Counted from the first letter of the stretch, positions 1 through 57,327 are shown. The stretch is DNA of 64,000 nucleotides from Candidatus Iainarchaeum sp. (GCA_028700115.1 JAQVTI010000002.1:418-64417), one strand, 5' to 3'. The notes: a model not told the origin generated them from the letters alone. Numbers and translations are program-made.

Positions 1-62
1 AATTTTTGCTAAAGCTTTTTGAAAGTAAGGCTTATTTCTAATATTTTTTAAAAGATGATTTG

Positions 63-431
63 ATGAAACTTGAAAAAAATGTAATTTATTTTACTGGTTA
101 TATTGAAATAAATGAACTTGTGTGTAATTTTTTAAAAGAACTTGATGATTTGCAAAATTTTCAAAATAATTTTATTATAATAAATCTTAAAAATAAATGT
201 GTTTGTTTAATTGAAAATTTTTCAAAAGGTTATTCTAGATTTTATAAAAAAGATAAATGTTTTTTTTATTCTAAATCTAAAGATAATCTTTCAGAAATTA
301 TCTCAAATTTACTTTTATTATATAAATTTGATATTTTTACAAAAGAACAATTTGATAGATATGTTTATTTATTTAATTTGAAATTTTCTATTTTTAATGG
401 TTTATTAAAAAAATTTGAAAAAAATGAATAA
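63..431 (+). CDS. hypothetical protein (upstream neighbour of the DGR core)
   Basis: ORF track 60-431. The TTG at 60 is followed at once by an ATG at 63. No recognisable motifs. Confidence 0.3.
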   Translation: MKLEKNVIYFTGYIEINELVCNFLKELDDLQNFQNNFIIINLKNKCVCLIENFSKGYSRFYKKDKCFFYSKSKDNLSEIISNLLLLYKFDIFTKEQFDRYVYLFNLKFSIFNGLLKKFEKNE

Positions 432-433
432 AT

Positions 434-766
434 ATGTTATCTGATTTAAAACTTTATAATGAAACTTATAATCTCATATTATGGTTATATCCTATTTTTA
501 AAAAATATCCTAAATCAGATAAATATAGTCTTGGTAAAAAACAAAAAGATATTTTATTAGAGGTTATGTCTGATATTATATTATTTAGTAAAAATAATAA
601 TTTAGATTATCTTAAAAAAATTGATTTAAATTTAGAACTTTTAAGAATTTCTTTTAGGCTTTCTAAAGATTTGAAAATAATAAATTTTAATAAATATGAA
701 ATTATTTCCAAAAAAATAACTTCATTAGGTTCTTTAGTTGGTGGCTTGATTAAGAAATATTTATAA
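434..766 (+). CDS. avd: Avd-like accessory variability determinant (four-helix-bundle / 23S rRNA-intervening-sequence protein family)
   Basis: 110 aa and basic. The pattern LYPIFKKYPKSDKYSLG ... LRISFRLSKD ... LGSLVGGLIKKY resembles bAvd and PF05635-type proteins. It lies directly upstream of the TR and RT. Confidence 0.75.
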   Translation: MLSDLKLYNETYNLILWLYPIFKKYPKSDKYSLGKKQKDILLEVMSDIILFSKNNNLDYLKKIDLNLELLRISFRLSKDLKIINFNKYEIISKKITSLGSLVGGLIKKYL

Positions 767-819
767 ATTGTTTATAGTATATACATTTGTCTTAAAAGAC
801 AAAGGTAGTATACAGTAAA

Positions 820-954
820 TTTCGTGCCTTTCTTGTGGGTGGTAATTGGAACAATGGTTCAAATGCCGGAGTTCTATCTCGGAATTTGAACAATAGTCCT
901 TCGAACCGGAACTATAACATCGGTTTCCGGTGTGTAGTAGTTTTTTCCTTTTAG
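820..954 (+). repeat. DGR template repeat (TR), a non-coding copy of a C-type-lectin-fold variable region
   Basis: GC-rich island in AT-rich DNA. The frame starting at 820 reads FRAFLVGGNWNNGSNAGVLSRNLNNSPSNRNYNIGFRCVVVFSF* with ten AAY Asn codons. It has no start codon, and stop codons lie just upstream. Confidence 0.75.
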
Positions 955-1152
955 GTTAAATTATGAGTAATTATATTTAAGGATATAATTAGTATTTTTA
1001 AAAAACTACATCTGTATAAACCTGATTTGTGTTTTATTTTTAAAACACCTTTTGGAAATACCAAGAGTTTAAGTCAAAAAATTTTTTTAAAATTATAATT
1101 TTTAGTAGTTTTTGATAAAATGAAATTAATTATAATTTTCTTTTGATTTTTT

Positions 1153-2214
1153 ATGAAGTCATATAATAATTTGTGGTCTGAATTTATTTCTTTTAGAAAT
1201 TTATTTCTTGCTTTTAAAAAAGCAAGAAAAGTAAAACCTAATTCTAAACAAGTTTTAGATTTTTCTTTTAATTTAGAAAAAAATTTATTTTCTCTTCAAA
1301 AAGAATTAATTGAAAATAAATATTCTGTAAGTGCTTATAATGTTTTTACTATTTTTGAACCTAAAGAAAGGATAATTAAATCTTTGCCTTTTAAGGATAG
1401 AGTTGTTCAACATGCTTTAATAAATATTATTGAACCAATTTTTGAAAAATCTTTTATTTATGATTCTTTTGCTTGTAGAAAAAATAAAGGTATTCATTTT
1501 GGATTAAATCGATTAAAAAAAGTAATTCAAAATAAATCTTGTCTAAAATATTTTTTAAAAGCAGATATTAAAAAATATTTTTTTTCAATAGATCATTCTA
1601 TTTTAAAAGAAATTATTTTTAAAAAAATCAAAGATAAATCTCTTCAAAATTTAATATCCATAGTTATAGATAGTGATTGTTCTAATTTATCTATAAATAA
1701 AGGTGTGCCTATTGGTAATTTAACTTCTCAGTTGTTTGCAAATATTTATCTTAATGAATTTGATCAATATATAAAACACAATTTATTTGTTTCTAAATAT
1801 TTTAGATATGTAGATGATTTTTTAATATTTTCTAATTCTAAAAAAGACTTAAATAAAATTTTATATTGCTGTCGTGTTTTTTTAAAAAAAGAATTAAAAT
1901 TAAAAATTCCTTTTAAGAAAGCAAATATTTATTTAACTAATAATGGAGTTGATTTTATTGGTTATGTTATTTATCCAAATTTTATTAAAGTTAGAACTAA
2001 AAGTTTAAAAAGATTTTATAAGGTTTCTAAAAAAAATATTTATTTATATGATATTGACTATATTTCTAAAGTTCAACTTGAGTCTTCTATTTGTTCTTTT
2101 TTAGGTTTTTTTAAATTTTCTAGTTCTTATAATGCTGTAATAAATATTTTTAATAATAATATTATATTTTATAATTATTTTTATTTATTTAATAAAATTT
2201 ATTTTAGTTTTTAA
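1153..2214 (+). CDS. DGR-type reverse transcriptase
   Basis: RT motifs KDRVVQHAL, LKADIKKYFFSIDH, GVPIGNLTSQLFANIYL (DGR signature [ILV]GxxxSQ), catalytic YVDD (1806-1817) and thumb FIGYVI. Confidence 0.85.
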   Translation: MKSYNNLWSEFISFRNLFLAFKKARKVKPNSKQVLDFSFNLEKNLFSLQKELIENKYSVSAYNVFTIFEPKERIIKSLPFKDRVVQHALINIIEPIFEKSFIYDSFACRKNKGIHFGLNRLKKVIQNKSCLKYFLKADIKKYFFSIDHSILKEIIFKKIKDKSLQNLISIVIDSDCSNLSINKGVPIGNLTSQLFANIYLNEFDQYIKHNLFVSKYFRYVDDFLIFSNSKKDLNKILYCCRVFLKKELKLKIPFKKANIYLTNNGVDFIGYVIYPNFIKVRTKSLKRFYKVSKKNIYLYDIDYISKVQLESSICSFLGFFKFSSSYNAVINIFNNNIIFYNYFYLFNKIYFSF

Positions 2215-2731
2215 GATAAGAAGTTGTCATTTTCTCAATAATCTTGTTAATTTCTTTTTTTCCTCTTTCTATTTTATAAAAAGAAAGTGCATTTTCTTTA
2301 TTATATTTATTTTTTCTAATAACTTTAATATCTAATTCTTTAATAATTTCTTTTTTTTTTTTTTTGTCAATAATTTTATTAGATACAATATTTATAAAAT
2401 AATTATTTTCCCCTTTTTTTAAATACCAGTTTTTTGAAATTTTATTAATTTGATCTGAACAGTTTAAAGTTAATAGCATTTCAGTAAATCTATTTTTTGA
2501 TATATTAATTTTATCTATAAATTTAGAATATGTGATATATATCGCATAATTTAGGTGTATTTTGTTGTATATATGTGTGTTTGGGACAATAAATATTTCT
2601 ATTTTATGATTTTGGTTATTTTTTATGTTTTCAATTCTTTTTAAATAGTTTTCTATATTATAAATATCTATTGTACAAAATATATTTTCAATATAATATT
2701 TTTTGTTATTAATATTAAATCTTTCTCTCAT
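2204..2731 (-). CDS. hypothetical protein, convergent with the RT and overlapping its 3' end by 11 nt
   Basis: ORF track only. Lys/Asn-rich, with no motif I recognise. Confidence 0.3.
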   Translation of the reverse strand: MRERFNINNKKYYIENIFCTIDIYNIENYLKRIENIKNNQNHKIEIFIVPNTHIYNKIHLNYAIYITYSKFIDKINISKNRFTEMLLTLNCSDQINKISKNWYLKKGENNYFINIVSNKIIDKKKKKEIIKELDIKVIRKNKYNKENALSFYKIERGKKEINKIIEKMTTSYLKN

Positions 2732-2780
2732 AATAAAATAATATGATCGTAACTGTTTTAAAATTTATAGGTGAACTAAC

Positions 2781-3176
2781 ATGGTTGAATGGAGACAAAT
2801 TTCTAAAAGAAAAAAAACTGGTGGAATCAATAATGCAGTAAATGCAAAAACAAAGTCTTTAAGTAATAAAGGTGGAACTTTTGTAAAGACAACAGTAAAT
2901 GATGTTGAAAAAAGATTTCAAGAAAGAACTATTGGTGGGAATAAGAAAGTTAAACTTTCCCAAACAAATATTGCTTTAATTTCTATTGCAGGAAAATCTA
3001 AAAAGGTAAAAATTTTAGATGTTTTAGAAAATGAAGCAAATAAACATTTTGTAAGGCAAAAAGTTATTACAAAAGGGTGTATTATAAAAGTAGATATTGA
3101 TGGAAAAGAAGAAAAAGCAAAAGTTACTTCTAGACCAGGTCAATTTGGACAAGTTTCTGCTATTTTAGTTAAATAA
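2781..3176 (+). CDS. rps8e: 30S ribosomal protein S8e
   Basis: N-terminus WRQISKRKKTGG and a size typical of eS8. Confidence 0.85.
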   Translation: MVEWRQISKRKKTGGINNAVNAKTKSLSNKGGTFVKTTVNDVEKRFQERTIGGNKKVKLSQTNIALISIAGKSKKVKILDVLENEANKHFVRQKVITKGCIIKVDIDGKEEKAKVTSRPGQFGQVSAILVK

Positions 3177-3185
3177 ATTTAATTT

Positions 3186-3737
3186 ATGTTTTCTAAATTT
3201 AAACAAACTTTAAAAACAGATTTTAATAATAAAAAAAAAAGATTAGTTTCTCTTTATTTTTTATTTCTTTTTCTATTTTTCTTTATTATATTTTTTTTAT
3301 TATTTTCAAAAACTTTTATTTATAGTTATATAAATTATTTTTATGGTATTTCTTCTTTTTTCATAATCAAAAATATTTTTCTAATTAGTTCTAGTTTTGT
3401 TTTTGATAGTTTGAATAATGTTTCTATTATTTTAATTTCTTCTTTAAATTATCCTGTTTTTATTACTTTTTTATGTACTGGTATACTTGAACTTAGTTTA
3501 ATCTTTTCTGCTATAGTGTCTTCTTTTAATTTTTCTATTATAAAAAGATTAAAAGGTTTATTTTTAGCTTTATTTGTTGTTATTATTTTTAATATATTTA
3601 GAATAAGTATAACTATTTTTATTATTACAAAATTTAATTTAGGTATTGCAAATTTAATGCATGGTTTTTTATTTAGATTATTTATAATTATAATTGTTAT
3701 TGGTACATATTATTTTTGGACTAAGAAAATAAAATAA
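3186..3737 (+). CDS. exosortase/archaeosortase family protein (small form)
   Basis: Polytopic membrane protein with an ordered Cys ... Arg ... His signature: FLCTGILELS, IFNIFRISITI, LMHGFLFRLF. Confidence 0.6.
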   Translation: MFSKFKQTLKTDFNNKKKRLVSLYFLFLFLFFFIIFFLLFSKTFIYSYINYFYGISSFFIIKNIFLISSSFVFDSLNNVSIILISSLNYPVFITFLCTGILELSLIFSAIVSSFNFSIIKRLKGLFLALFVVIIFNIFRISITIFIITKFNLGIANLMHGFLFRLFIIIIVIGTYYFWTKKIK

Positions 3738-4121
3738 TTATTTATTTTCTTTAATAATTTTTTTAACTTGAGAAATAGTTGCGTATTCTAATGGATTAAT
3801 ATTATCTATAATATATTTCATTTCTTTTAAGTCTTCTTCTTTTGCAAATTTTTTTGAAAAAAGTTCTAAAGAATGTTCAAGGTGTTCTATTTTTTTTTCA
3901 ATATTATCCATTCTTTTTGTAATGTCTTTAATCTCTTGAAAGTTTAGTCCTGTACTATTATTTGTAGTTTCTGTTTTTGATGCAATTTTTTTATTTAAAA
4001 CAAGTATATTTCTTCCCAAGATTTTTTCATTATGAACTAAATATTTTATTTTTTGTCTTAATACTAAAAGACTTGATTGTAAGGCTTTAATATCTTGATA
4101 TATTCCAGATTGTTCAGGCAT
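3738..4121 (-). CDS. hypothetical coiled-coil protein
   Basis: ORF track. Heptad-like, K/E/L-rich sequence. Confidence 0.3.
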   Translation of the reverse strand: MPEQSGIYQDIKALQSSLLVLRQKIKYLVHNEKILGRNILVLNKKIASKTETTNNSTGLNFQEIKDITKRMDNIEKKIEHLEHSLELFSKKFAKEEDLKEMKYIIDNINPLEYATISQVKKIIKENK

Positions 4122-4302
4122 ATTTAATCTTTTTTATTTTTCTTATTTAATATATATTGTATATTTTCTTTTAAAGCTTTTTCTTTTTCTTTTTTTAGTT
4201 TCGCGTAATTAATTTTATTCAGTTATTAAATTAAATACCTTTATAAATACTTTCTCTCTATATATTATTACAAACCACATTTGGTTTTTGGAGGTATAAT
4301 TT

Positions 4303-4707
4303 ATGAAAAAAGTGTTTTTTATTTTTATGATTTTATTAGTTTCTTTATTTTCAGCATTTATTTTTGCAGAAGATTTTGATATTACTGATGTTTCATATTC
4401 TTATGTTACTTATGATTATCCAATATATCCAAATGTAAGTTATCAAAGAAATTATTCTCAAGCAGGTTATGATTATATAAATACATATAATTCATATGCT
4501 ACAATAAATCCATATTCTGGAACTTATTATAATTCTTATCCAGCATATAATTATTATGCTTATAATAATTATCCTGTATATACTTATTATCCTACACATA
4601 GTTCGTATATAACTCCAGTTTATTCTTCTTATACAAATTATTATCCATATAATTCTAATAATTTATCTTATTCAAATGGAAATTCTTATGTTTCTTTTAC
4701 ATGGTAG
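4303..4707 (+). CDS. secreted Tyr/Asn/Ser/Pro-rich low-complexity protein
   Basis: Signal peptide MKKVFFIFMILLVSLFSAFIFA, followed by about 110 aa dominated by Y, N, S and P. SD GGAGGT lies upstream. Confidence 0.55.
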   Translation: MKKVFFIFMILLVSLFSAFIFAEDFDITDVSYSYVTYDYPIYPNVSYQRNYSQAGYDYINTYNSYATINPYSGTYYNSYPAYNYYAYNNYPVYTYYPTHSSYITPVYSSYTNYYPYNSNNLSYSNGNSYVSFTW

Positions 4708-4757
4708 TTTTTATTTTTAAAAAATGTTTTTTTTAATTTATTAATGTGTGATTTAAA

Positions 4758-7700
4758 ATGAAGTTTAAAATTTATTTAATATTTATTATTTTAGTTTTTA
4801 TATCAAGCACACTATGTGCTTCATATATAGGTTTTGAATATACTGAGGTTAGAAGTACTAGTTATTATACTTTTTCAAATACCCAATATTCAAATTACTA
4901 TGAACCAATTGATTTAAGATTTTCTGCATATTCATCAGGTTTTAATAATTATGTTCCAGTCAGAGTAACTCCAAGAGTTTATGGGGTTCTGCCAAATGGG
5001 CAATTAAACTTTGTTTATACTCTCCCAACTTCTTCATATTTATTATATCCAAACCTTCCAATTTCATATACTTATAATAATTTATTTTATTTTGACCCAG
5101 AATATCAATTTTATGAAATAAAATTAGATATTGTAACTACAGATGGTGTATATTCAGATACAGATACATCTTATGTTTATTTTGAAGAAAATGGAACTTC
5201 AGGTAATTCTGGAAATTCTGGTAATACAAATGATCTTGAAGTTATAGATTGTTCTAAATTTTCTTTATCTGGATTTTATGATATTTATTTAGAGGAAGAT
5301 AAAGAAGATACCTATGATTTATATATTTATAATTCTGTTGATTTCCCATTAGATATTTTATCTGTTATAACAAATGATCTTTCTGAACTTGATGTTGAAG
5401 ATATAACTTATCCTTATACAATTTCTTCTTATCAAACAAGAAGTGCTCAAATTGATTTATTAGCAGATACAGTTTCAGATGATTATTCTTCTTTTATGGA
5501 TGTTTATGTGACTGCAAAATACGGAGATTTAGTTTGTAATAAAGAATTTAGAGTAAACTATACAATTGAAGATAAAGAAAATCCTTCAACTGCGGATTGT
5601 TCTGATATAGATTTTGAAAATATATCTTTTGAGATTATGGAAGATTCAAGTGATAGATTTGAAATTGATATTACAAATAATTCTTATGATTATGAATTTG
5701 AGATAGAATCAGTTTCTATAAATGATTCTGAAAATTTAGATGTAGATGTTTCATATTATCCTTCAAGAATAAATGTTGATCAAACAAGAACTTTAAAAAT
5801 AAATGTTGATTCAGAAGAAATTGATTCAAGTACAACTGAGGAAATTGAAGTTAAAGTTAAAGGGGTTATGACTAGAGACGGAAGAGAAGATAAAACTTGT
5901 AAAGTAAACCAAGATTTTAGATTTAGAATAATTGATTCTGAAAATACCTCTGGTTTTGGAGAATGTTCTGATATTAAGATTTATACTTCACAAATTTCTC
6001 AAGTAGAAAATATTTCTAAAGATTATTCTCTTCAAGATGGTTTTTATATTTATAATTCTTCAAATAAAGATTTTATTATTACAAACATAGTTTTTGATGA
6101 TAGATCTAGTGATTATGATATTTCAAAAAATCCAATGTCTTATACAGTTAATGCTTTTTCAAAAAATTCACTTAATTTCAATTTAAAGACTTATGATGTT
6201 TTTAATGATTTATATAAATCTAAGGTAAATGTATATGGTAAGTTTGAAAATGGAGTAAGTTGTTTATATTCTGATATTTCAAAAGAGTTTAATATATATA
6301 TAGGTAAAGAACAAAATCAATGTAGTTTAATTAAACCTGATAGTATAAATGTAAATGAAGGTAAAAATACTTTAAGAGTATATAATAATTCTAATCTTGA
6401 TTTTATTGTAAATGATGTTTTGAAATCTAATCTTTCTGATTTAGATATTGATGTAATTGACAATTCATTTACAATTAATAAAAATTCATATAAAGATATT
6501 GAATTTGGAGTTTTAGGTAAATCTGGTTATGCTGAGCTTTTATATAAGGGTGGATTTGAAAATGGAGTTAGTTGTTCTTATACAGATATTTCAAAGTCTA
6601 TTTTAAAAAGTAATAATTATTATTTATCTGGTGATTGTGAATTTTCTTTTGATTTTCCAAAATATTTAACTTTAAATTCTAATCAAGATATTAAATCTTT
6701 TGAAATTTTTTTTAAAAATAAAACAAATAAGTCTGGTTACATAGAATTAACTACAGATGGTGCTAATATTTCTCCTTCTTTTTTATATTTTTCAAGTTTT
6801 GAGGATTTTACAAATAATGTTTTTATTTCTGATTTTATTAATTCTACTATTATTAATTATAATATTAAATTAAGTGATTGCCCTAAAGTGAATTATTCTA
6901 CTTTTTTAAAAAAAGAAATAATTTTAGATAATAGTTTAGAGTTATTGTCTTTTTCAAATGAAATTAGTTCTACAAGTAATCAAATAGATACATCTGTTGT
7001 TTTAAGAAATAATTCTGATTTTTCAAAAACTTTTGTTGTAGCCCTTTCTGGTTTTCCTTCTAGTTTGTCTTATTTAGTTTCTGATAATCTTAATTTTTCT
7101 AATAGTAATAATGTTTTTACAATTGCCCCACATCAAGAAAAGATTTTATATTTTAGAATAAATTCAAGTATTTTAACAAATAATTCTTTTAATGGATTTT
7201 TTGAATTTTTTATAGATGATTCTTTAGTTTTGCAAAAGCCTTTAAAAATAACATTAATTTCAAATCATGTTGTTGAATTTTTAATGTCTGTTGATGTTTT
7301 AGATTCTTCTAATAGTTTTTCTAAGTTTATTTCTATAGATGTTGTTAATAATTCTTTAAATGATATTAATTCTGTAATTGTATTTAATAATCTTAAAGAA
7401 AATATGGATGTTTTAGGAGATGATTTGAATTTTTTTATTTTGAAAAATTCAAATATTATTAAACAATATGAAATTAAAAGTAGTAGTTTTTTTCCAAAGG
7501 ATTATAATTTAGATGTTATGTTATATGATTTTGATAAAAATATACCTTTAGCATCTACAAATGTTGTTTTTAATAGAAAAGGTAGTTTATTTAATACAGG
7601 TTTTTTTTCTTTAGGCGTTTTTAATAGTATTACTTTGATTTTTTTGATAATTTTATTTTTAATAATAATTGTATATTTTATTAAAAAACATAAAAATATT

Positions 7701-7985
7701 ATGCCTATTAAAAATATTTTTTTAAAAAGAAAAAATTCTTTAATTTTGGATGATTCTAATAATTTTAAAAAGATTGTTTTAGATAAGAAAGATGTTTTAG
7801 ATAAGAAAGATGTTTTAGATAAGAAAGATGTTTTAGATAAGAAAGATGGTTTTAAGTTAGTTTATGATTCTTTTTTAATTAATAATAATTCTAATATCAA
7901 AAGAAAGTCTCTAAATATGGTTGATAATAAAAAAATGGTTTCTAAAAAGAATTTAGATAGTTTTAATTTTTCTAAAAATTTTTAG
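4758..7985 (+). CDS. large modular cell-surface protein (signal peptide, repeated beta-sandwich-like modules, C-terminal TM and Lys-rich tail)
   Basis: N-terminal signal peptide. Repeated modules of about 110 aa begin with CS(D/K/L) and end with G.FENGVSC.Y.DISK. TM segment ITLIFLIILFLIIIVYF. VLDKKD x4 in the tail. Confidence 0.55.
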   Translation: MKFKIYLIFIILVFISSTLCASYIGFEYTEVRSTSYYTFSNTQYSNYYEPIDLRFSAYSSGFNNYVPVRVTPRVYGVLPNGQLNFVYTLPTSSYLLYPNLPISYTYNNLFYFDPEYQFYEIKLDIVTTDGVYSDTDTSYVYFEENGTSGNSGNSGNTNDLEVIDCSKFSLSGFYDIYLEEDKEDTYDLYIYNSVDFPLDILSVITNDLSELDVEDITYPYTISSYQTRSAQIDLLADTVSDDYSSFMDVYVTAKYGDLVCNKEFRVNYTIEDKENPSTADCSDIDFENISFEIMEDSSDRFEIDITNNSYDYEFEIESVSINDSENLDVDVSYYPSRINVDQTRTLKINVDSEEIDSSTTEEIEVKVKGVMTRDGREDKTCKVNQDFRFRIIDSENTSGFGECSDIKIYTSQISQVENISKDYSLQDGFYIYNSSNKDFIITNIVFDDRSSDYDISKNPMSYTVNAFSKNSLNFNLKTYDVFNDLYKSKVNVYGKFENGVSCLYSDISKEFNIYIGKEQNQCSLIKPDSINVNEGKNTLRVYNNSNLDFIVNDVLKSNLSDLDIDVIDNSFTINKNSYKDIEFGVLGKSGYAELLYKGGFENGVSCSYTDISKSILKSNNYYLSGDCEFSFDFPKYLTLNSNQDIKSFEIFFKNKTNKSGYIELTTDGANISPSFLYFSSFEDFTNNVFISDFINSTIINYNIKLSDCPKVNYSTFLKKEIILDNSLELLSFSNEISSTSNQIDTSVVLRNNSDFSKTFVVALSGFPSSLSYLVSDNLNFSNSNNVFTIAPHQEKILYFRINSSILTNNSFNGFFEFFIDDSLVLQKPLKITLISNHVVEFLMSVDVLDSSNSFSKFISIDVVNNSLNDINSVIVFNNLKENMDVLGDDLNFFILKNSNIIKQYEIKSSSFFPKDYNLDVMLYDFDKNIPLASTNVVFNRKGSLFNTGFFSLGVFNSITLIFLIILFLIIIVYFIKKHKNIMPIKNIFLKRKNSLILDDSNNFKKIVLDKKDVLDKKDVLDKKDVLDKKDGFKLVYDSFLINNNSNIKRKSLNMVDNKKMVSKKNLDSFNFSKNF
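7776..7847. repeat. perfect 18-bp tandem repeat x4 (encodes VLDKKD x4)
   Basis: gttttagataagaaagat is repeated four times head to tail. Confidence 0.9.
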
Positions 7986-8387
7986 TTATTTTTATATTTT
8001 ATTAATATTCTGAGTTTTTTTAGAATGTTTTTTTAGGTTTTGAAATCTTTTGCACCTTATTTTTGCATTTAAAGCTTATTTTATTCTTTTAAGTTTTTTT
8101 TGTGCAAATTGAGTGCTTTTTAGGTTGTTTTTTGGCAATCTATTTATAAAGTTTTCTATTCAGTTAATTATTATATAAACAATATAAGCTTTGTACACTG
8201 CTAGTTAACAGGTACAATATATTAACTTTTTTAATTAAAAGTTAACATGTAAATGCAAAGCAAGATTTATGTGTTTTTTTAAAAATTTTAAAAAAGTAGA
8301 TTTATGTTTGTGCATTTTTATAAAAAATGATTTAATATATTTAAAAAAATTTAAAAATATTTTAAAAAATAATAATGTGTTTTTAAT

Positions 8388-9371
8388 ATGCCAAGAAGAT
8401 ATAAACCAAGAGCTGGTTCTATGGCTTTTTACCCTAGGGTAAAAGCAAAATCAATTATTCCTAAGTTTAATAGTTTTGGAGATATTGTAAATAATTCAGA
8501 TTGTAAGCCTCTTTGTTTTTTTACAATTAAAGCAGGTATGGCCCAAGTAATTGGTAAAGATGCTCATAAGAAGAGTTCTACTTATGGTCAAGAAGTTGTA
8601 ACTTCTGTAACTTTACTTGATGCTCCTGATTTGAAGGTTGTAGGAGCCAGATTTTATAAAGATAATAAAATTATTTTTGGGAAAAAAGCTGTTTTTGAAT
8701 TTTTAAATTTTGATAATTTAATTTCACGAAAAATAAAAGGTAAAAATTCAAAAAAAACAATTTCTTTAGATGATATTTTAAAAAGAAAAGATGAAGCAAA
8801 TTCTTTAGTTTTATTAGCTTATTTAGATTCTAAAAAAACATCTACTGGTCAAAAGAAACCAATTTTAGCAGAGATTCCTTTGTCAGGAGATTATGATTCT
8901 CAAATAAATTATTTAAAAGAGAAATTAAATAAAACCATTTCTGCTTTAGAAGTTTTTAATGCTGATACTTATTTAGATGTTAAGTCTATTTCTAAAGGAC
9001 ATGGAACAACAGGTCCTGTTAAAAGATTTAATATAAAAACATTAAGACCAAAACACCAACAAATAGAAAGACATGTTGGTTCAATTGGTCCATGGCATCC
9101 TGCTACAATAATGTATACTGTTCCTAGAGCAGGTCAACATGGTTTCCATAATAGAACTGCTTATAATAAAAAATTATTAATGATAGATTCAGATGTAAAT
9201 AAAGTTAATTTTAAAGCAGGTTTACAAAATTATGGGGTTTTAAAAAATAATTATCTTGTGGTTGCTGGTTCTGTTCCAGGTCCTGTTAAAAGAGTTGTAG
9301 TTTTAAGAAATGCAACAAGACCACAAAGAAATTTAGTAGAGTTAACAGATATAAAAATTATAGTTAATTAA
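8388..9371 (+). CDS. rpl3: 50S ribosomal protein L3
   Basis: MPRRYKPRAGSMAFYPR and KGHGTTGPVKRF motifs. First gene of the conserved operon. Confidence 0.95.
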   Translation: MPRRYKPRAGSMAFYPRVKAKSIIPKFNSFGDIVNNSDCKPLCFFTIKAGMAQVIGKDAHKKSSTYGQEVVTSVTLLDAPDLKVVGARFYKDNKIIFGKKAVFEFLNFDNLISRKIKGKNSKKTISLDDILKRKDEANSLVLLAYLDSKKTSTGQKKPILAEIPLSGDYDSQINYLKEKLNKTISALEVFNADTYLDVKSISKGHGTTGPVKRFNIKTLRPKHQQIERHVGSIGPWHPATIMYTVPRAGQHGFHNRTAYNKKLLMIDSDVNKVNFKAGLQNYGVLKNNYLVVAGSVPGPVKRVVVLRNATRPQRNLVELTDIKIIVN

Positions 9372-37119: not shown

Positions 37120-40100
37120 ATGTTAAAAAAAATATTGTTTGTTTTTAGTTTATTATTTGTTTTTAGTTTATTTACAATGTATGCATATACTGTAACTGAT
37201 GTAAATATAGTAAATTCTTATGGAGGAGATTCTGGAAGTAGTTATAAATTTCAAGTAACTGTTGATGATTCTACAGGATTTACTGAAATCCCTGTAATTA
37301 TTGATTCTGATAAAGAAACAACTCCAATTGATTTTAATATAAATGTGAAAGATGGTGATGTTTTTACTGGTTTTTTTTATATAGATTATGATTCTTCATC
37401 TTCTTCTTTTAAAGAACCAGAAGGTTATCCTAAAATAATTGTAAATGATGTTGATGAAATTGTTGTTTCTGCAGGAGGTCAAAATGATTCTTTGACTGTA
37501 GATATTATTTCTCCAGTTATTGGAGATTATACAATTGAGTCTTTAGGAAGTAATTATGAAAATTATTATTCCGGAGATATTAATTTTACTATGAGTGGTT
37601 ATTCAGATGCAGATTCTGGACTTGTATATTATGTTGCTGATTTAATTGAAGATGGTTATGAATTAGATTATTGTGAACTTCAATCAAATTTACTTTTATC
37701 TGTGTTATTTGATTTACAAATTTCTGTACATCCTGATAATGAAATTAATGTGGATACTACTGAGTATACAGATGGAAATTATTTTTCATTAATAGGAGTT
37801 TTAGATGCTGCTTCTAATTCTGGATCTTTAGATGATACTATTGCTACTAATAAAAATATAATTGTAGACAACACCTCCCCAACAATTAGTTCTTTTAATT
37901 TAGGAACTTTAGAAGATGGTTCTACTTATTATACAGATTCAAATGATTTTGTTATACAAATTGTTTTAGAAGATAACTTGTCAGGAATAAATCCAGTAAA
38001 TCCAAATTCCTTAATTACAGTTGTTGATCCAAATTCAACAACATATGCTTCTTATAGAGATTTTAATACAGAAATAAATGGTTTTTATGTACCTGTTGAA
38101 TCATCTTTTACAGATGGACAAGTTTTTGAAGTTTCTTTTGATGTAAATGATTATGTTAATAATAATATTTCAAAAAGTTTTGATATACAAATAGATTCAC
38201 AAGTTCCAACAACTCCTACTGAAGCAACTCTTACAAGAGATGTTGATAATAATATAACAATTGTAAGTTGGGGGACTTCAACTGACTCTGGAAGTGGAAT
38301 AAAAGAATATAAAGTTTATAGATCTGAAAGTGATTTTACAAATGTAACTTCTCAAACTTTAATTTGTACAGTTTCTTCTTCAGCAACAAAGTCTTGTGAA
38401 GATACTTCTGAAAAAGATGATGATACAAGATACTATTATGGTGTTGTTGCAATTGATAATGCAGGAAATATATCTCAAGTAGATTCTTCTAGTGTGAAGA
38501 CAGGTCCTGATTTATTTGTTGAAATTGAATCTGATTATACAAATAATGCTACTCCAGATATTAATTTAGAATTTAGTAATGATGTAAATTTAATTAGATT
38601 TAGTTGTAATGCTTCAACTTTTACTTCTTGGATTGAAGTTTCAGGAGATTCAGAAGTTTATAATGAATTTAATATAACTTCTGGAAATGGTTGTAATTCT
38701 GATGATGGTAAAAAAACAATATATGTTGAAGCAAAAAGTGAAGATGATCCTTATTTAGTTACTAGAAAATCAGATGATGTTAAATATGATGGTCATGCAC
38801 CAGATAAACCTACAAATGTAGATGTAAGTTCAAGAACAAATGGTTCTTTATATCTTACATGGGATGAATCTGATGATAATTATAGTGGTATAGATTATTA
38901 TAAAGTATATTATTCAAATTTAGATGCAGTAGGAATAAATTCAGAATATGAGACTACATATAATGAAACTTATGTTTTCGATCCAAATATTAATGAGACT
39001 TATTATTTAAAAATTTCTGCAGTTGATGAAGCTGGAAATGAATCTGATTTAAGTAGTTTAGTTTCTGGAGAAACTAAAAGATTTGGACCTACTTTTACAA
39101 TGTCTGTTTCTCCAAAATCTAATATAGAAGATATTATTTATTTAAATAAAGGCATTTCTAGTTTTACATTTGTTTCAGATGAAACTTTAAAACAAAAACC
39201 AACTGTTAAAATAAAACTTGATAATTCTTCTCTAAAAACAATTTCTTCTGGAGTTTGGGATCAAGATAAAACTTTAACTTTAGATTATAATTTCTTTGAA
39301 GAAAATGGTGATTCTGAAATTCAAATAACAGGTGTTAATTTATCTGATGAAGAATCAACAGATATATTTGAGTTTGTTTTAGATACTACACTTCCAGATT
39401 TTAATTATATTTATGATTTTAATAATCCAAATTTAAATATTAATATTTCTTCTTTTTCTGAAGATATTACAAAGTTTCAATATTTATTAAATGATACAAT
39501 TTCTCTTTGTTTAAAAGAAGATTCTACAGATTATAATTGTAGTGTATTAACTACTGATTATGAAGATGGTAACCATATAGTTTCAGTTGTTGCATATGAT
39601 CCTGCATTAAATGTGGTTGTAAAAAAATTTAATATAATTTTTGATAATGTAGATGAAGAAATAGTTAATTTAGAAAATATAATTACACAAGTAAATCAAA
39701 AATATGATGATATAATTTCTAAATTAAAAATTTTTGATCAACTTTTAATAATTATTTCTAAAGATATTTTAAATAGTTTAAATGTTATTGATATTGATTT
39801 AAATGTTGCTGAAGAATTATATAATAAAAAAAGTGTCTTAGAAGCAACAAATCTTTATAATAAAATTAATTCTGATCTTGATAAAGTTATAGATATTCTT
39901 CCAAAAGAATCAATTATACAAACTATTGATTTTAATTATTCTTTTGATCAAAATTCTTTTGTAAATGTTTTGCCTATTGTTATTGATCAAAATATATTGA
40001 CAGATACAAATATATTGTATTTAGAAAATAGTATAATTTCTTCTAGAACTTTTTCAGTTTTAGAAATTGATTCTGAAAAATTTCTTTCTATAAATCTTTC

Positions 40101-40725
40101 TTTTAAAAATATTTCTAAAAAGGAAAAAACAATTACTTTTATTGAAAATATTCCAAAAAATTTTGCAAGTGATATAAAAGATTTAATTTTTAGTCATGAA
40201 GTAAAAGTTCTTTTAGATGATCCTATAATTATATATACAATTGTAATCCCTGCAGAAAGTAATTTTTCTTTAAGTTATAAAAATTTAAATCCAATTACAG
40301 ATTTTGATGTAGCTACTAATTTTAATCAAATTGAGTTTAGTTCTCCGATTGTTTTAAATGGAGTTGTTACTTCTAAAGATATTGATTTAAACATTATTAA
40401 AAGTAATTCTTTAGTTTCATATTTTGCAGTTGGTTTAGTTGCTTTAATATTTTTATTAATAATTATTTGGTTAATTGTTTCTGCTACAAAAAAGAAAAGA
40501 GATTTAGTTAATCCTACAAAATCAGATGATATAAATAATATTTTGGGTAAGAACAATTCTTCTTTAGAAAATAATGATGATAATTTAAAATCTTCAGATT
40601 ATCCTTCTAAAAAATCTTTAGAAGATAAAAATTCTTCTTTAGAAAATGATTATGGTATTTCCAATAATACTTTTGAAAGTAATTATGAGTTTATTTTAGA
40701 TGCTGTTAAAAGAGTTAAAAAATGA
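37120..40725 (+). CDS. large cell-surface protein with fibronectin-III-like domains, a C-terminal TM and a tail
   Basis: Signal peptide. Two FN3-like modules (IVSWGTSTDSGSGIKEYKVYRS ... YYYGVVAIDNAGNIS and LYLTWDESDDNYSGIDYYKVYYS ... YLKISAVDEAGNES). TM segment FAVGLVALIFLLIIIWLIV. Confidence 0.6.
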   Translation: MLKKILFVFSLLFVFSLFTMYAYTVTDVNIVNSYGGDSGSSYKFQVTVDDSTGFTEIPVIIDSDKETTPIDFNINVKDGDVFTGFFYIDYDSSSSSFKEPEGYPKIIVNDVDEIVVSAGGQNDSLTVDIISPVIGDYTIESLGSNYENYYSGDINFTMSGYSDADSGLVYYVADLIEDGYELDYCELQSNLLLSVLFDLQISVHPDNEINVDTTEYTDGNYFSLIGVLDAASNSGSLDDTIATNKNIIVDNTSPTISSFNLGTLEDGSTYYTDSNDFVIQIVLEDNLSGINPVNPNSLITVVDPNSTTYASYRDFNTEINGFYVPVESSFTDGQVFEVSFDVNDYVNNNISKSFDIQIDSQVPTTPTEATLTRDVDNNITIVSWGTSTDSGSGIKEYKVYRSESDFTNVTSQTLICTVSSSATKSCEDTSEKDDDTRYYYGVVAIDNAGNISQVDSSSVKTGPDLFVEIESDYTNNATPDINLEFSNDVNLIRFSCNASTFTSWIEVSGDSEVYNEFNITSGNGCNSDDGKKTIYVEAKSEDDPYLVTRKSDDVKYDGHAPDKPTNVDVSSRTNGSLYLTWDESDDNYSGIDYYKVYYSNLDAVGINSEYETTYNETYVFDPNINETYYLKISAVDEAGNESDLSSLVSGETKRFGPTFTMSVSPKSNIEDIIYLNKGISSFTFVSDETLKQKPTVKIKLDNSSLKTISSGVWDQDKTLTLDYNFFEENGDSEIQITGVNLSDEESTDIFEFVLDTTLPDFNYIYDFNNPNLNINISSFSEDITKFQYLLNDTISLCLKEDSTDYNCSVLTTDYEDGNHIVSVVAYDPALNVVVKKFNIIFDNVDEEIVNLENIITQVNQKYDDIISKLKIFDQLLIIISKDILNSLNVIDIDLNVAEELYNKKSVLEATNLYNKINSDLDKVIDILPKESIIQTIDFNYSFDQNSFVNVLPIVIDQNILTDTNILYLENSIISSRTFSVLEIDSEKFLSINLSFKNISKKEKTITFIENIPKNFASDIKDLIFSHEVKVLLDDPIIIYTIVIPAESNFSLSYKNLNPITDFDVATNFNQIEFSSPIVLNGVVTSKDIDLNIIKSNSLVSYFAVGLVALIFLLIIIWLIVSATKKKRDLVNPTKSDDINNILGKNNSSLENNDDNLKSSDYPSKKSLEDKNSSLENDYGISNNTFESNYEFILDAVKRVKK

Positions 40726-54603: not shown

Positions 54604-55077
54604 ATGAATAAAAAAGCAATTTCACCACTTATTGCAACAGTTTTGTTAATTGTTGTTGCAGTTGCATTAATTGCAATTGTTTTAAGTTGGGGAAAATCAT
54701 TTACAACACAAGGACTTTCAGAAACTGGAAATGTAGTTGATACAACTTGTACTGGTGCTACTATTACTATTCCTTCATGTAGTGTTAAAGATGGGAATAT
54801 AATATTTTATGTAACAAATAATAGTTCTACATATGATTTTGCAACATCAGATAATTTTGTATTTGATGTAACTAGTGATACTGGGGTTTATAATGCTGAT
54901 AATAATTTAAGTACATATACTTCAGAAGCATGGGCTGGATTATCAACAGGTGCAACTGTTCAAGTATCAGCATCTTTAACAACATTAGCTGTTACAGGAA
55001 ATAGTTATGATGTTGCTGTAAGATCTTCTATTTGTTCTTCTGATGCAGTTTATACATTTAAGAATTGTCATAGTTAG
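54604..55077 (+). CDS. archaeal type IV pilin-like protein (class III signal peptide)
   Basis: MNKKAISPLIATVLLIVVAVALIAIVLSWG N-terminus. SD AGGTGA upstream. Confidence 0.8.
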   Translation: MNKKAISPLIATVLLIVVAVALIAIVLSWGKSFTTQGLSETGNVVDTTCTGATITIPSCSVKDGNIIFYVTNNSSTYDFATSDNFVFDVTSDTGVYNADNNLSTYTSEAWAGLSTGATVQVSASLTTLAVTGNSYDVAVRSSICSSDAVYTFKNCHS

Positions 55078-55203: not shown

Positions 55204-57327
55204 TTGTTAATTGTTGTTTGTGTTGCAATGGTTGTAATTATTTTAAACTGGGGAAAAATGTTTACACATGATAGTGTAAAAGTTATAGATTATGCTTCTT
55301 TTACAGAATCTGATTTAGAAGGTTATGTTTTTGTAAAAAATATATTTGAATCAACTGATGGATCAGATAGTAAATTAATTTTAGATAATAGAAATAAATT
55401 AAAAGATGCAAATATAATTGCATATAAAATATTAGATTTAGACCCTTCTAAATCTGGAATTACAGATATTTATTATGAATATGATACTCCTGTTTTATTA
55501 CAACACGGGCATTCAAAAGATCTAAATGTTATTTGTTTTCCTTCAAATGAGTTTGATATTGAGTTTTATACATCTGATGAAAAATGTTTTAAAGTAAATG
55601 TTTTTGATTCATCTCTTTCTTGTCAATCTTGTTTAAATCTCCCATATTGTGGAGATAGTTCTTGTAATGGAGATGAGACTGCAAACACATGTTATTCTGA
55701 TTGTGGAAGTTGTGGAGATGGAATTTGTACATCTGGAGAAGAAAATATGACTTCTTGTTATACAGATTGTGGAACTTGTGGAGATGGAATTTGTACATTT
55801 GGAGAAGAAAATGCTACAACTTGTTATGATGATTGTGGTGAATGTGGAAATTCTATTTTAGAAGGACCAGAGACTTGTGATTCAGATACAGAAAGTTGTA
55901 CAACTTCTGTTTCAGGAATAACTTATGTTGGAACACATACTTGTTTAGGAGATTGTTCTGCATATGGAACTTGTACTACTACTAAATCTTGTGGAGATGG
56001 AATTTGTCAAAACACAGGTGGAGATGGAGAAACTGTAAGTAATTGTGTAGTTGATTGTCATTCTTGTGGAGATGGTATTTGTAGTGATGGTTATGAAACT
56101 GAAGTTTCTTGCCCTGCAGACTGTTTACAATATACTTGTAGTCTAGGAGATACAGATAATGGTGATGGAACTTGTACTGCTTTAATAGATGCAAGTTATG
56201 ATAATAGTTTAAAATATACCACTTCTAATTTTGATTATGATGCAACTACTGGAGTAGTTAATGGTGGTACTTATGTTTCTGTAGGTTCTTATGAATTTGG
56301 AGGTGCTGCCCCTGCATTATGTGTTTTAGAAGACACTTTAATTAATGTTTTAAGAAATGATGAAGAAAAAGAAATGTTTGTTCAAGATGTTTTATTGTCT
56401 GATTATATTTTATCTTGGGACTTTAATCAAAATGAATATATATATGTTCCTGTTTTACAAAAATTTAATAATACTATTAATGAATACTATATTATTAATA
56501 ATAAATTAAAAGTTACTTCATTACATCCAATATATATTAAAGATAAAGGATTTATTTATCCAGAAGAAATTACATATAATGATTATTTATTAAATAGTAA
56601 TGGTGATTTTGAGAAAGTAAATAGTGTTAAATTTGTTGAAAATGTAGATGAAAATATTTATAATTTTGAAACAGGAAATCATTTTTATTTTGCTAATGGT
56701 TATTTAACACATAATCCAGCACCTATGTCTCCTTATTTATATTATATACATAGATCTTATTTCTTTTTTGATACTTCTTATATTTCTAGTTATGGAACTG
56801 TAAATTCTGCAGATTTTAAATTTACTGTTAGTCAATATGATGAAATTACTAGTTATAGTTTTATTTTACAAAAAACAGATAATTCAACTTATCCTCATAA
56901 TCCTTTACAAACTGGAGATTTTGATGAATCTTATTATAGTGGTAATTTAGGATCTATTTCAAATTCTAGTTTTGGTTCTCCTTCTATTGTTAGTTTAAAT
57001 TCAACAGGACTTACAGAAGTTACAAATAGTTTAGGAGATACTTTTAAATTTGTTTTAAGATCTGATTGTGATGTAGGTCATTCTTGTGATGATGAGCATA
57101 AATTAGCTTATATTTATAGATATAATTCTGCAAATCCTCCTCAATTAGAAATAACTTATTCCCCTACATCTCAAGTATACTGTGGAAATGGTGTTGTTGA
57201 GACAGGTGAAGATTGTGAATGTGGTGTGGGTGCTTTTGATATGGGTAATGTAGGGGAAAATAGTTGTGTAAATTATTCTTCTGATACTTGTATAAATTGT
57301 GTTTATACTGGTGGATTTGGTAATTAA
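55204..57327 (+). CDS. Cys-rich surface protein with an embedded Hint domain; its pilin-like class III signal peptide (from the ATG at 55153) is interrupted by an in-frame TAA at 55189-55191, so it may be a pseudogene
   Basis: The frame from 55153 reads MDYNFNKKAISP*IATVLLIVVCVAMVVIILNWG, paralogous to the N-terminus of 54604. The 2.1-kb ORF downstream is intact. Confidence 0.55.
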   Translation: MLIVVCVAMVVIILNWGKMFTHDSVKVIDYASFTESDLEGYVFVKNIFESTDGSDSKLILDNRNKLKDANIIAYKILDLDPSKSGITDIYYEYDTPVLLQHGHSKDLNVICFPSNEFDIEFYTSDEKCFKVNVFDSSLSCQSCLNLPYCGDSSCNGDETANTCYSDCGSCGDGICTSGEENMTSCYTDCGTCGDGICTFGEENATTCYDDCGECGNSILEGPETCDSDTESCTTSVSGITYVGTHTCLGDCSAYGTCTTTKSCGDGICQNTGGDGETVSNCVVDCHSCGDGICSDGYETEVSCPADCLQYTCSLGDTDNGDGTCTALIDASYDNSLKYTTSNFDYDATTGVVNGGTYVSVGSYEFGGAAPALCVLEDTLINVLRNDEEKEMFVQDVLLSDYILSWDFNQNEYIYVPVLQKFNNTINEYYIINNKLKVTSLHPIYIKDKGFIYPEEITYNDYLLNSNGDFEKVNSVKFVENVDENIYNFETGNHFYFANGYLTHNPAPMSPYLYYIHRSYFFFDTSYISSYGTVNSADFKFTVSQYDEITSYSFILQKTDNSTYPHNPLQTGDFDESYYSGNLGSISNSSFGSPSIVSLNSTGLTEVTNSLGDTFKFVLRSDCDVGHSCDDEHKLAYIYRYNSANPPQLEITYSPTSQVYCGNGVVETGEDCECGVGAFDMGNVGENSCVNYSSDTCINCVYTGGFGN
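56320..56715 (+). other. Hint (intein-like, BIL-type) autoprocessing domain, 132 aa
   Basis: Begins with Cys (ALCVLEDTLINV), has a TxxH block (VTSLHP) and ends YLTHN. It is followed by Pro, not Cys, Ser or Thr. Confidence 0.65.

Follow-up and report, generated by a model that had tools for sequence, protein, structure and literature searches.

A DGR template repeat, very probably, in an AT-rich DPANN-type archaeon, with its variable repeat just beyond the analysed sequence

The repeat at positions 822-942 of the window, as we call the whole 64-kb stretch of DNA analysed here, is very probably the template repeat (TR) of a chromosomal diversity-generating retroelement (DGR) in a very AT-rich DPANN-type archaeon, whose variable repeat (VR) lies just off the window. 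We found a reverse transcriptase (RT) of the DGR clade, an adenine-specific TR/VR pair, Avd and a VR of C-type-lectin (CLec) type, and the element is an ordinary and probably functional example of a known system rather than an orphan. The cassette consists, in order, of the presumed 3' end of a target gene with the VR, its stop codon, a GC-rich spacer with a hairpin, an Avd-like gene (63-431), avd (434-766), the TR (822-942), a structured spacer (943-1152) and the RT gene (1153-2214). The window is archaeal, with 22.9% GC, and also contains a Cgi121-like ORF (2204-2731, minus strand), S8e (2781-3176) and, downstream, a ribosomal-protein/SecY cluster. The features of the cassette that fall within the window are the following:

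1-9, plus strand: 3' arm (partial, the rest off-window) of the outer stem of the post-VR hairpin, between the target stop and the Avd-like gene
63-431, plus strand: Avd-like ORF, 122 aa from the ATG at 63 (mechanical ORF from the TTG at 60)
434-766, plus strand: avd, accessory variability determinant, 110 aa
786-803, plus strand: small hairpin upstream of the TR (TTTGTCT-TAAA-AGACAAA), read from the sequence
822-942, plus strand: TR, 121 nt with 28 adenines; its frame from 820 encodes a variable-region peptide of CLec type
918-942, plus strand: 3' segment of the TR, IMH*-like, the same in the VR with its adenines unchanged; TR and VR part right after 942
937-1009, plus strand: predicted long-range RNA duplex between the TR 3' end (937-945, GTAGTTTTT) and the spacer (1001-1009, AAAAACTAC)
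969-990, plus strand: stem-loop just past the TR (AATTATAT-TTAAGG-ATATAATT); its loop is of a conserved TTTAAGGA/TTTACGGA type
1153-2214, plus strand: DGR RT, 353 aa, with motif 4 IGNLTSQ and the catalytic YVDD

The template repeat

Read in frame from 820, the region gives FRAFLVGGNWNNGSNAGVLSRNLNNSPSNRNYNIGFRCVVVFSF*, in which ten of the 44 codons encode Asn, all of them AAY. The translation from 820 with its ten AAC/AAT codons, as given in the initial annotation, agrees exactly with our recomputed frame. Over the 41 codons of the TR this is a clear excess of Asn (binomial P ~7e-4; Asn makes up 7.5% of the residues encoded by the long ORFs of the window). The TR also differs in composition, with 43.8% GC against 22.9% for the whole window: 822-942 is the GC-richest 121 nt of the 64 kb, in which 43% GC is reached solely by 121-nt segments starting at 820-823. 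The repeat had been placed at 820-954, an extent that needs a minor correction, the repeat proper being 822-942. Over its final 25 nt (918-942) TR and VR are identical, and just downstream the VR continues with CCATAA and the TR with TTTTCC. By analogy with described elements, this segment fits a putative IMH/IMH*-like boundary; some DGRs have been reported to have identical IMH/IMH* pairs (PMC5758913).

The frame 820-954 contains no ATG, and a GTG at 835 opens a mechanical ORF of 39 aa (835-954). The earlier description of the stretch as having stops just upstream and no start codon is therefore right in its first part, there being an in-frame TAA at 793-795, and has to be qualified in its second. 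This GTG-initiated ORF is what could be cited for taking 820-954 as a small ORF, or as the 3' end of an expressed gene, a reading that we find barely credible. Because of the in-frame stop at 793-795, and because avd ends at 766 in a different frame, the TR is not the tail of a gene. A Pfam search with the 44-aa peptide from frame 820 gave no match, relatives carry only a truncated C-terminal fragment as their TR equivalent, always between avd and the RT, and a near-identical copy with adenine-only differences stands at what is presumably the true 3' end of an upstream gene. The interpretation of the stretch as a template and not a gene thus holds, given the upstream in-frame stop and a placement between avd and RT as in the relatives.

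The variable repeat lies just upstream of the window

Within the 64 kb the repeat has no second copy. An ungapped scan of both strands using non-A positions only had a best off-target value of 72%, blastn-short with the TR found nothing beyond 16 nt, and in tblastn searches with the TR peptide and the full-length targets of three relatives, the C-termini matched the TR alone. This agrees with the initial annotation, which had reported no VR in the window and had looked in vain at the C-termini of the large ORFs at 4758-7985, 37120-40725 and 55204-57327; we likewise found no VR-like end in any of them.

The first of these ORFs (1075 aa) has no Pfam match and a (DKKDVL)x4 repeat at its C-terminus, the second (1201 aa) contains fn3 and Ig-like domains, and both presumably encode surface proteins. 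The pilin-like N-terminus of the DGR-target family recurs, with tblastn E values of 1e-11 to 1e-13, in the ORFs at 54604-55077 and 55204-57327. The latter, of 707 aa, aligns with the target P0138 over ~250 residues (27% identity), has a weak Pretoxin-HINT match and ends without a CLec/VR region. From their sequences, these two ORFs look like non-diversified paralogues of the N-terminal module of the target.

An exact-sequence look-up of the RT retrieved contig L001 (JAQUYT010000034.1 of GCA_028691725.1, 8501 nt). Its positions 259-8501 are 100% identical to window positions 1-8243, and because there are 0 mismatches over 8243 nt, L001 represents the same genome, reaching 258 nt further upstream. 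The VR is found in this extension at L001 4-123, i.e. 136-255 nt before window position 1, L001 being the one assembly that includes it. It had been predicted to lie just upstream of position 1, in a target-avd-TR-RT layout, and extending the contig upstream had been proposed as a check; the extension does hold a VR, and its substitutions are purely adenine-specific. In the alignment of the TR (822-942) with the VR (121 columns), 10 of the 10 substitutions fall on TR adenines, there is one 1-nt gap, and 0 of the 93 non-A positions of the TR are changed in the VR (hypergeometric P 1e-7, for 28 A among 121). The VR recodes Asn residues of the TR to Ser, Gly, Thr, Tyr, Ser and Ser, a Ser to Gly, and a Tyr to Cys. 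The last base of the repeat is L001 123, and the next six are CCA TAA, with the stop codon 4 nt on; the VR would thus close an ORF ending in ...IGFRCVVVP*, a C-terminus like that of the targets of related DGRs.

L001 itself starts 3 nt before the VR, with the body and start codon of the target ORF off the contig, and two Logan contigs from different runs (L002, L007) both start at window position 27. The ends of independent assemblies therefore cluster here within some tens of bases, as the window start corresponds to L001 259, which suggests a graph branch or a change of coverage near the hairpin and VR in the sampled population. An assembly that fragments in this way might also be wrongly joined: TR/VR repeats invite mis-joins, of which L017 (see below) is a possible example, and some family targets, e.g. 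P0199, have no RT nearby. The 258-nt extension could in that case be a chimera, the real target lying at a remote site, but we consider this very improbable. The VR differs from the TR at adenines alone, and so belongs to this TR. Moreover, the extension matches the complete contigs of relatives in its succession of VR, stop, tandem-repeat spacer, hairpin and Avd-like gene, and the outer stem of the hairpin crosses the window junction (L001 223-233 with 257-267, the latter being window -1 to 9).

Several searches were made for the rest of the target gene. The pattern CGTGCCTTTCTTGTGGGTGGT, an A-free 5' part of the repeat, gave three unrelated bacterial matches among genome contigs, the locus not being found, and no match in metagenome and viral contig collections. 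A protein search with the repaired VR peptide returned no candidates, other window proteins used as queries for longer contigs returned just L001 and the Logan contigs starting at 27, and homologues of a relative's target did not lead to the target gene body of this genome: the candidates among them, the partial 'ainarchaeum' proteins P0139 and P0199, belong to two other MAGs (GCA_028702685.1 and GCA_028685115.1). Every assembly breaks off at the VR, so that none contains the body of the target gene. That the VR seemed to be missing is due to the edge of the window and of the assembly, and does not denote an orphan DGR. A TR found alone at the edge of a contig or window should not be taken for a sign of decay, since DGR loci systematically cause assemblies to break off at the VR.

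A one-base deletion in the assembled variable repeat

The single gap in the alignment is the loss from the VR of the TR G at 881, which abuts an AAT codon (CGG AAT in the TR, CG- ACT in the VR). The upstream VR frame consequently reaches a TGA at L001 68-70, 19 codons short of the natural stop, while after the gap the VR is still in the family frame through its last codons. This could reflect a target pseudogene or disabled allele in this strain, or an assembly error at the contig end. TR/VR length differences occur in ~7% of DGRs, nearly half of them frameshifting and mostly beside AAC codons, and have been put down to RT slippage (PMC5758913).

Taken at face value, the 1-nt deletion and its premature TGA would fit a DGR that has decayed or lost its activity in this strain, with a pseudogene as target and the TR, RT and avd as relics. 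A locus with an RT 62% identical (L017), in which the target is fused to the TR 3' flank and avd genes are missing, points in the same direction by indicating that collapse is possible in genomes or assemblies. We nevertheless judge decay to be unlikely. The lack of any non-adenine substitution (0/93), the intact RT, avd and Avd-like ORFs, and the family frame kept past the deletion to ...IGFRCVVVP* all argue against it, as does the occurrence of TR/VR indels, including frameshifting ones, in that ~7% of catalogued DGRs, usually beside AAC where here the codon is AAT (PMC5758913). Furthermore, the deletion lies close to where the contig ends, and populations are heterogeneous in this region; the next homing event would also be expected to overwrite the frameshift.

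Reverse transcriptase and accessory genes

The RT matches Pfam RVT_1 (E 1.3e-28), and its IGNLTSQ motif and the Y-DD of YVDD are invariant among 30 homologues. The best PDB match is the 328-aa RT in entries 8ub7-8ube (E 2.7e-49), which we take to be bRT, with group II intron and retron RTs at 1e-18 or weaker, and the protein is ~40% identical to phage DGR RTs, Bordetella phage records included. Both motifs expected of the DGR clade, [I/L/V]GxxxSQ and YxDD, are thus present in a protein nearer to DGR RTs than to group II or retron RTs. We rejected three other assignments from NCBIfam scores: group II intron RT (143.9, cut-off 300), retron RT (44.5, cut-off 235) and Drt, for whose models the RT is below the cut-offs. 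An Rfam search of L001 1-1500 gave chance-level miRNA/snoRNA matches alone, with no intron RNA or msr/msd family.

On its profile matches, the ORF at 434-766 is a bona fide Avd (Pfam bAvd E 3.4e-19, 69.8 bits with a cut-off of 40; NCBIfam DivGenRetAVD 86.6 bits with a cut-off of 80). The ORF ahead of it (63-431) is probably a divergent four-helix-bundle protein, to judge from sub-threshold matches to 23S_rRNA_IVP (E 2e-5) and to the TIGR02436 four-helix-bundle profile (E 1.6e-4). Its comparison with the Avd profile was weak (hhalign E 1e-3, probability 19%), a single-sequence AlphaFold prediction gave no usable fold (pLDDT 44), and PDB sequence searches with Avd and the Avd-like ORF returned nothing informative. 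Orthologues occupy the same position in L008 (446-826, 126 aa), L011 (6228-6605, 125 aa), L020 (2786-3247) and L026 (2290-2736). The Avd-like ORF is conserved across the RT sub-clade, with a GY(S/N)-(F/Y)-KKDK-like motif in common.

Related DGR loci

We detected 6266 RT homologues in metagenomes at E <= 1e-20, with labels that include Woesearchaeota, 'ainarchaeum' and Patescibacteria. Adenine-specific TR/VR pairs were present in ~45 of the 76 metagenome loci of related RTs that were examined (80 scanned), the VRs lying on the same strand as the TR and 360-1850 nt (mostly ~400-1000) upstream of it; several of these contigs start inside the VR. The closest relative (L008-L010, L016), with an RT 65% identical, has the same cassette in a syntenic arrangement (RT - Cgi121 - S8e - ... 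- L3/L4), and its contigs all stop in or just before the VR. These breaks are evidence that VRs systematically break assemblies. In three samples of this relative, the VRs differ mainly at TR adenines, with a few non-adenine differences, and such differing sequences are evidence that the DGR of the lineage is active. Another relative (L011-L013, RT 60% identical) is complete, with a 451-aa target, a 125-aa Avd-like protein, a 113-aa Avd, the TR and the RT.

Some related loci depart from this arrangement. In L017 (2377-4001), a 473-aa target is joined directly to the 3' flank of the TR, with the RT after it; the locus has neither avd gene, and the target C-terminus is frameshifted (...YRTTASAFVV*). 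VR and TR have collapsed to one copy, through recombination that really deleted the rest or through a jump of the assembler across the repeat. In L015 (1-1127, from GCA_028685115.1), the genes downstream of the one for P0199, a CLec protein of the target family, are those for GtrA, asparaginase and GatB, in place of avd, TR and RT. In several MAGs, target-family proteins (P0139, P0172, P0187, P0199) have near-identical N-terminal halves and differing C-terminal halves. There are hints here of remote or multiple targets, or of domain shuffling, in the target family.

The target protein family

Against all PDB sequences, the TR peptide matched the Mtd VR (1yu4 residues 338-374, E 6e-4) and TaqVP (5vf4). 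It is 58% identical to the C-terminus of P0121 and 54% to that of P0138, and the VR matches the C-termini of the relatives' targets, which are ~450 aa long. P0121, the complete target of the L011 relative, has an FGE-sulfatase Pfam match (E 3e-7) as well as a weak match to archaeal Pilin_N (E 0.006), and its N-terminus resembles archaeal flagellin-like chains. Modelled with 56 homologues (pLDDT 87, pTM 0.83), it comprises a helix (17-49), a beta-sandwich (~65-146) and then a CLec-like domain; the top structural matches of the model are TaqVP (Foldseek E 4e-9), formylglycine-generating enzymes (FGE) and Mtd. The earlier remark that an ending of the type ...NIGFRC is typical of CLec/FGE-fold VRs is well founded in view of the Mtd/TaqVP sequence matches and of the TaqVP, FGE and Mtd hits of the relative's model. 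The sequence matches support a CLec/FGE-type assignment for the TR peptide, and the predicted structure supports a fold of this type for P0121; by extension, this genome's own target would also be of CLec/FGE type.

CPR homologues of the target have a bacterial type IV pilin N-terminus (PF07963), and by analogy with its relatives the target of this genome would carry a pilin-like helix and a beta-sandwich in its N-terminal part. It is possible, although we put this forward only tentatively, that this DPANN DGR sub-clade is a variant in mechanism and function, in which two different Avd-family proteins take part in the RT complex and the diversified tip belongs to a type-IV-pilin-like surface protein (class-III-signal-like helix, beta-sandwich, CLec), in effect a programmable adhesin. 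If so, an episymbiotic archaeon could use it to bind changing hosts, and pilin-anchored CLec adhesins would be a convergent theme of ultra-small symbionts, the CPR targets with PF07963 being the counterpart.

RNA elements and hairpins around the cassette

No Rfam family covers the RNA elements around the TR. L008 and L011 likewise have a small hairpin ahead of the TR, its loop A/T-rich and of TTAAA type, and the one at 786-803 probably belongs to the DGR RNA. In the spacer, the motif at 1001-1009 is followed by an invariant ACATC-type motif (A-T-C). Its duplex with the TR 3' end (937-945) was predicted by RNAalifold from 7 relatives; in an alignment of 11 relatives, 89% of cells are paired, with 3 compensatory pairs, making it a candidate template:primer duplex. 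The stem-loop at 969-990 is paired in 92% of cells across the 11 relatives, with both-side changes in 6 of 8 pairs, and is a candidate Avd-binding stem-loop by analogy with a described system (bioRxiv 10.1101/2023.10.23.563531). Taken together, the two helices are paired in 90% of cells in the 11 relatives, versus 39-51% in slid controls, with both-side changes in 9 of 17 pairs; none of 500 shuffles reached the observed values.

The hairpin after the VR has an inner part, CTTGCC-GTAA-GGCAAG, at L001 238-253, and the outer stem given above. The DNA fold of L001 129-275 has an energy of -22.6 kcal/mol (z = -3.0). L008 and L011 have hairpins of other sequence at the same position, with loops of 3 and 6 nt, and in L001, L008 and L011 alike the hairpin is followed by an A/T-rich run, which in L001 and L011 includes a T-run. 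The phage DGR hairpin has a GC-rich stem of 7-10 bp and a 4-nt GRNA loop, and lies 4-34 bp after the VR (PMC3240598); with its GTAA loop and a distance of 115 nt from the VR, the one found here does not fit this pattern. As a phage-type hairpin is present in 34% of DGRs (PMC5758913), it does not define DGR membership. The hairpin at L001 238-253 may instead be the terminator of the target gene.

Between the target stop and the hairpin, all three loci have 7-8-nt tandem repeats (2.3-2.8 copies), different in sequence each time: L001 171-192 (67-88 nt before the window start), L008 310-325 and L011 6132-6151, with units AGACGGCA, TGCCGCT and TATCTGTC. The spacer after the VR has 42% GC in a genome of 23% GC.

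Possible mechanism and significance

If the locus works as BPP-1 does, a transcript covering the TR and its flanks would fold back on itself, bringing the TR 3' end (937-945) into a duplex with 1001-1009 of the spacer, and this RNA would assemble with the RT and Avd (PMC6182149; bioRxiv 10.1101/2023.10.23.563531). By the same analogy, cDNA synthesis would start at the TR 3' end, with RT and Avd misincorporating opposite adenines, and the cDNA would replace the VR, changing as many as ~12 codons, most of them for Asn (AAY). The recoded residues would then lie on the ligand-binding face of the CLec domain, at the C-terminus of a surface protein. We infer these reverse-transcription and homing steps, and current activity, from what is known of such elements.

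The locus would give one more DPANN archaeon the ability to hypermutate the ligand-binding tip of a surface protein, which bears on partner recognition by host-dependent cells. The second, Avd-like gene, the covarying duplex between TR and spacer, and the stem-loop could guide work on how reverse transcription is primed and controlled in DGRs outside phages.

Comparison with known systems

The prototype is the DGR of BPP-1 (mtd - avd - TR - brt), and the genes of the present cassette follow each other in the same way: the VR, presumably closing the target gene, then avd, TR and RT. The two are also alike in that TR/VR differences are adenine-specific and concentrated in AAY codons, and in that the TR peptide aligns to residues 338-374 of the Mtd VR. 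They differ in several respects. The BPP-1 element is carried by a phage, whereas here it is chromosomal, in an archaeon, and an extra Avd-like ORF precedes avd. BPP-1 has a hairpin with an 8-bp GC stem and a GAAA loop directly after the VR, in contrast to the distant hairpin with GTAA loop and T-run described above. The IMH-like and IMH*-like segments are here identical over 25 nt, unlike those of BPP-1. Finally, Mtd is a trimeric tail-fibre tip, while the targets of the relatives are of monomer type, with a pilin-like helix, a beta-sandwich and a CLec domain.

The model of the relative's target finds its best structural match in the Thermus aquaticus prophage protein TaqVP (PDB 5VF4), and the two can be aligned in sequence over their C-terminal VR segments. 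TaqVP, from a bacterial prophage, consists of a single domain, to which the relatives' targets add an N-terminal hydrophobic pilin-like helix and a beta-sandwich.

Close parallels are also found among the DGRs of DPANN archaea and CPR bacteria from groundwater metagenomes, such as the CPR set of Wu et al. 2018 (PMC5758913) and the Nanoarchaeota AvpA (PMC5006420). Here too the host is an ultra-small, AT-rich archaeon, the cassette is chromosomal and sits beside housekeeping genes (S8e, Cgi121, ribosomal proteins), and the target is of CLec type. AvpA has been reported to fall outside the FGE subtype (PMC6328139), whereas the VR here is of the FGE/Mtd/TaqVP subtype. Among catalogued DGRs, two avd genes were recorded in 1 of 372 (PMC5758913), in contrast to the tandem of Avd-like gene and avd that is conserved in this sub-clade. 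DGRs are abundant in DPANN archaea and CPR bacteria (PMC5758913, PMC8144416, PMC5006420), and the cassette described here therefore adds one more case of a known system.
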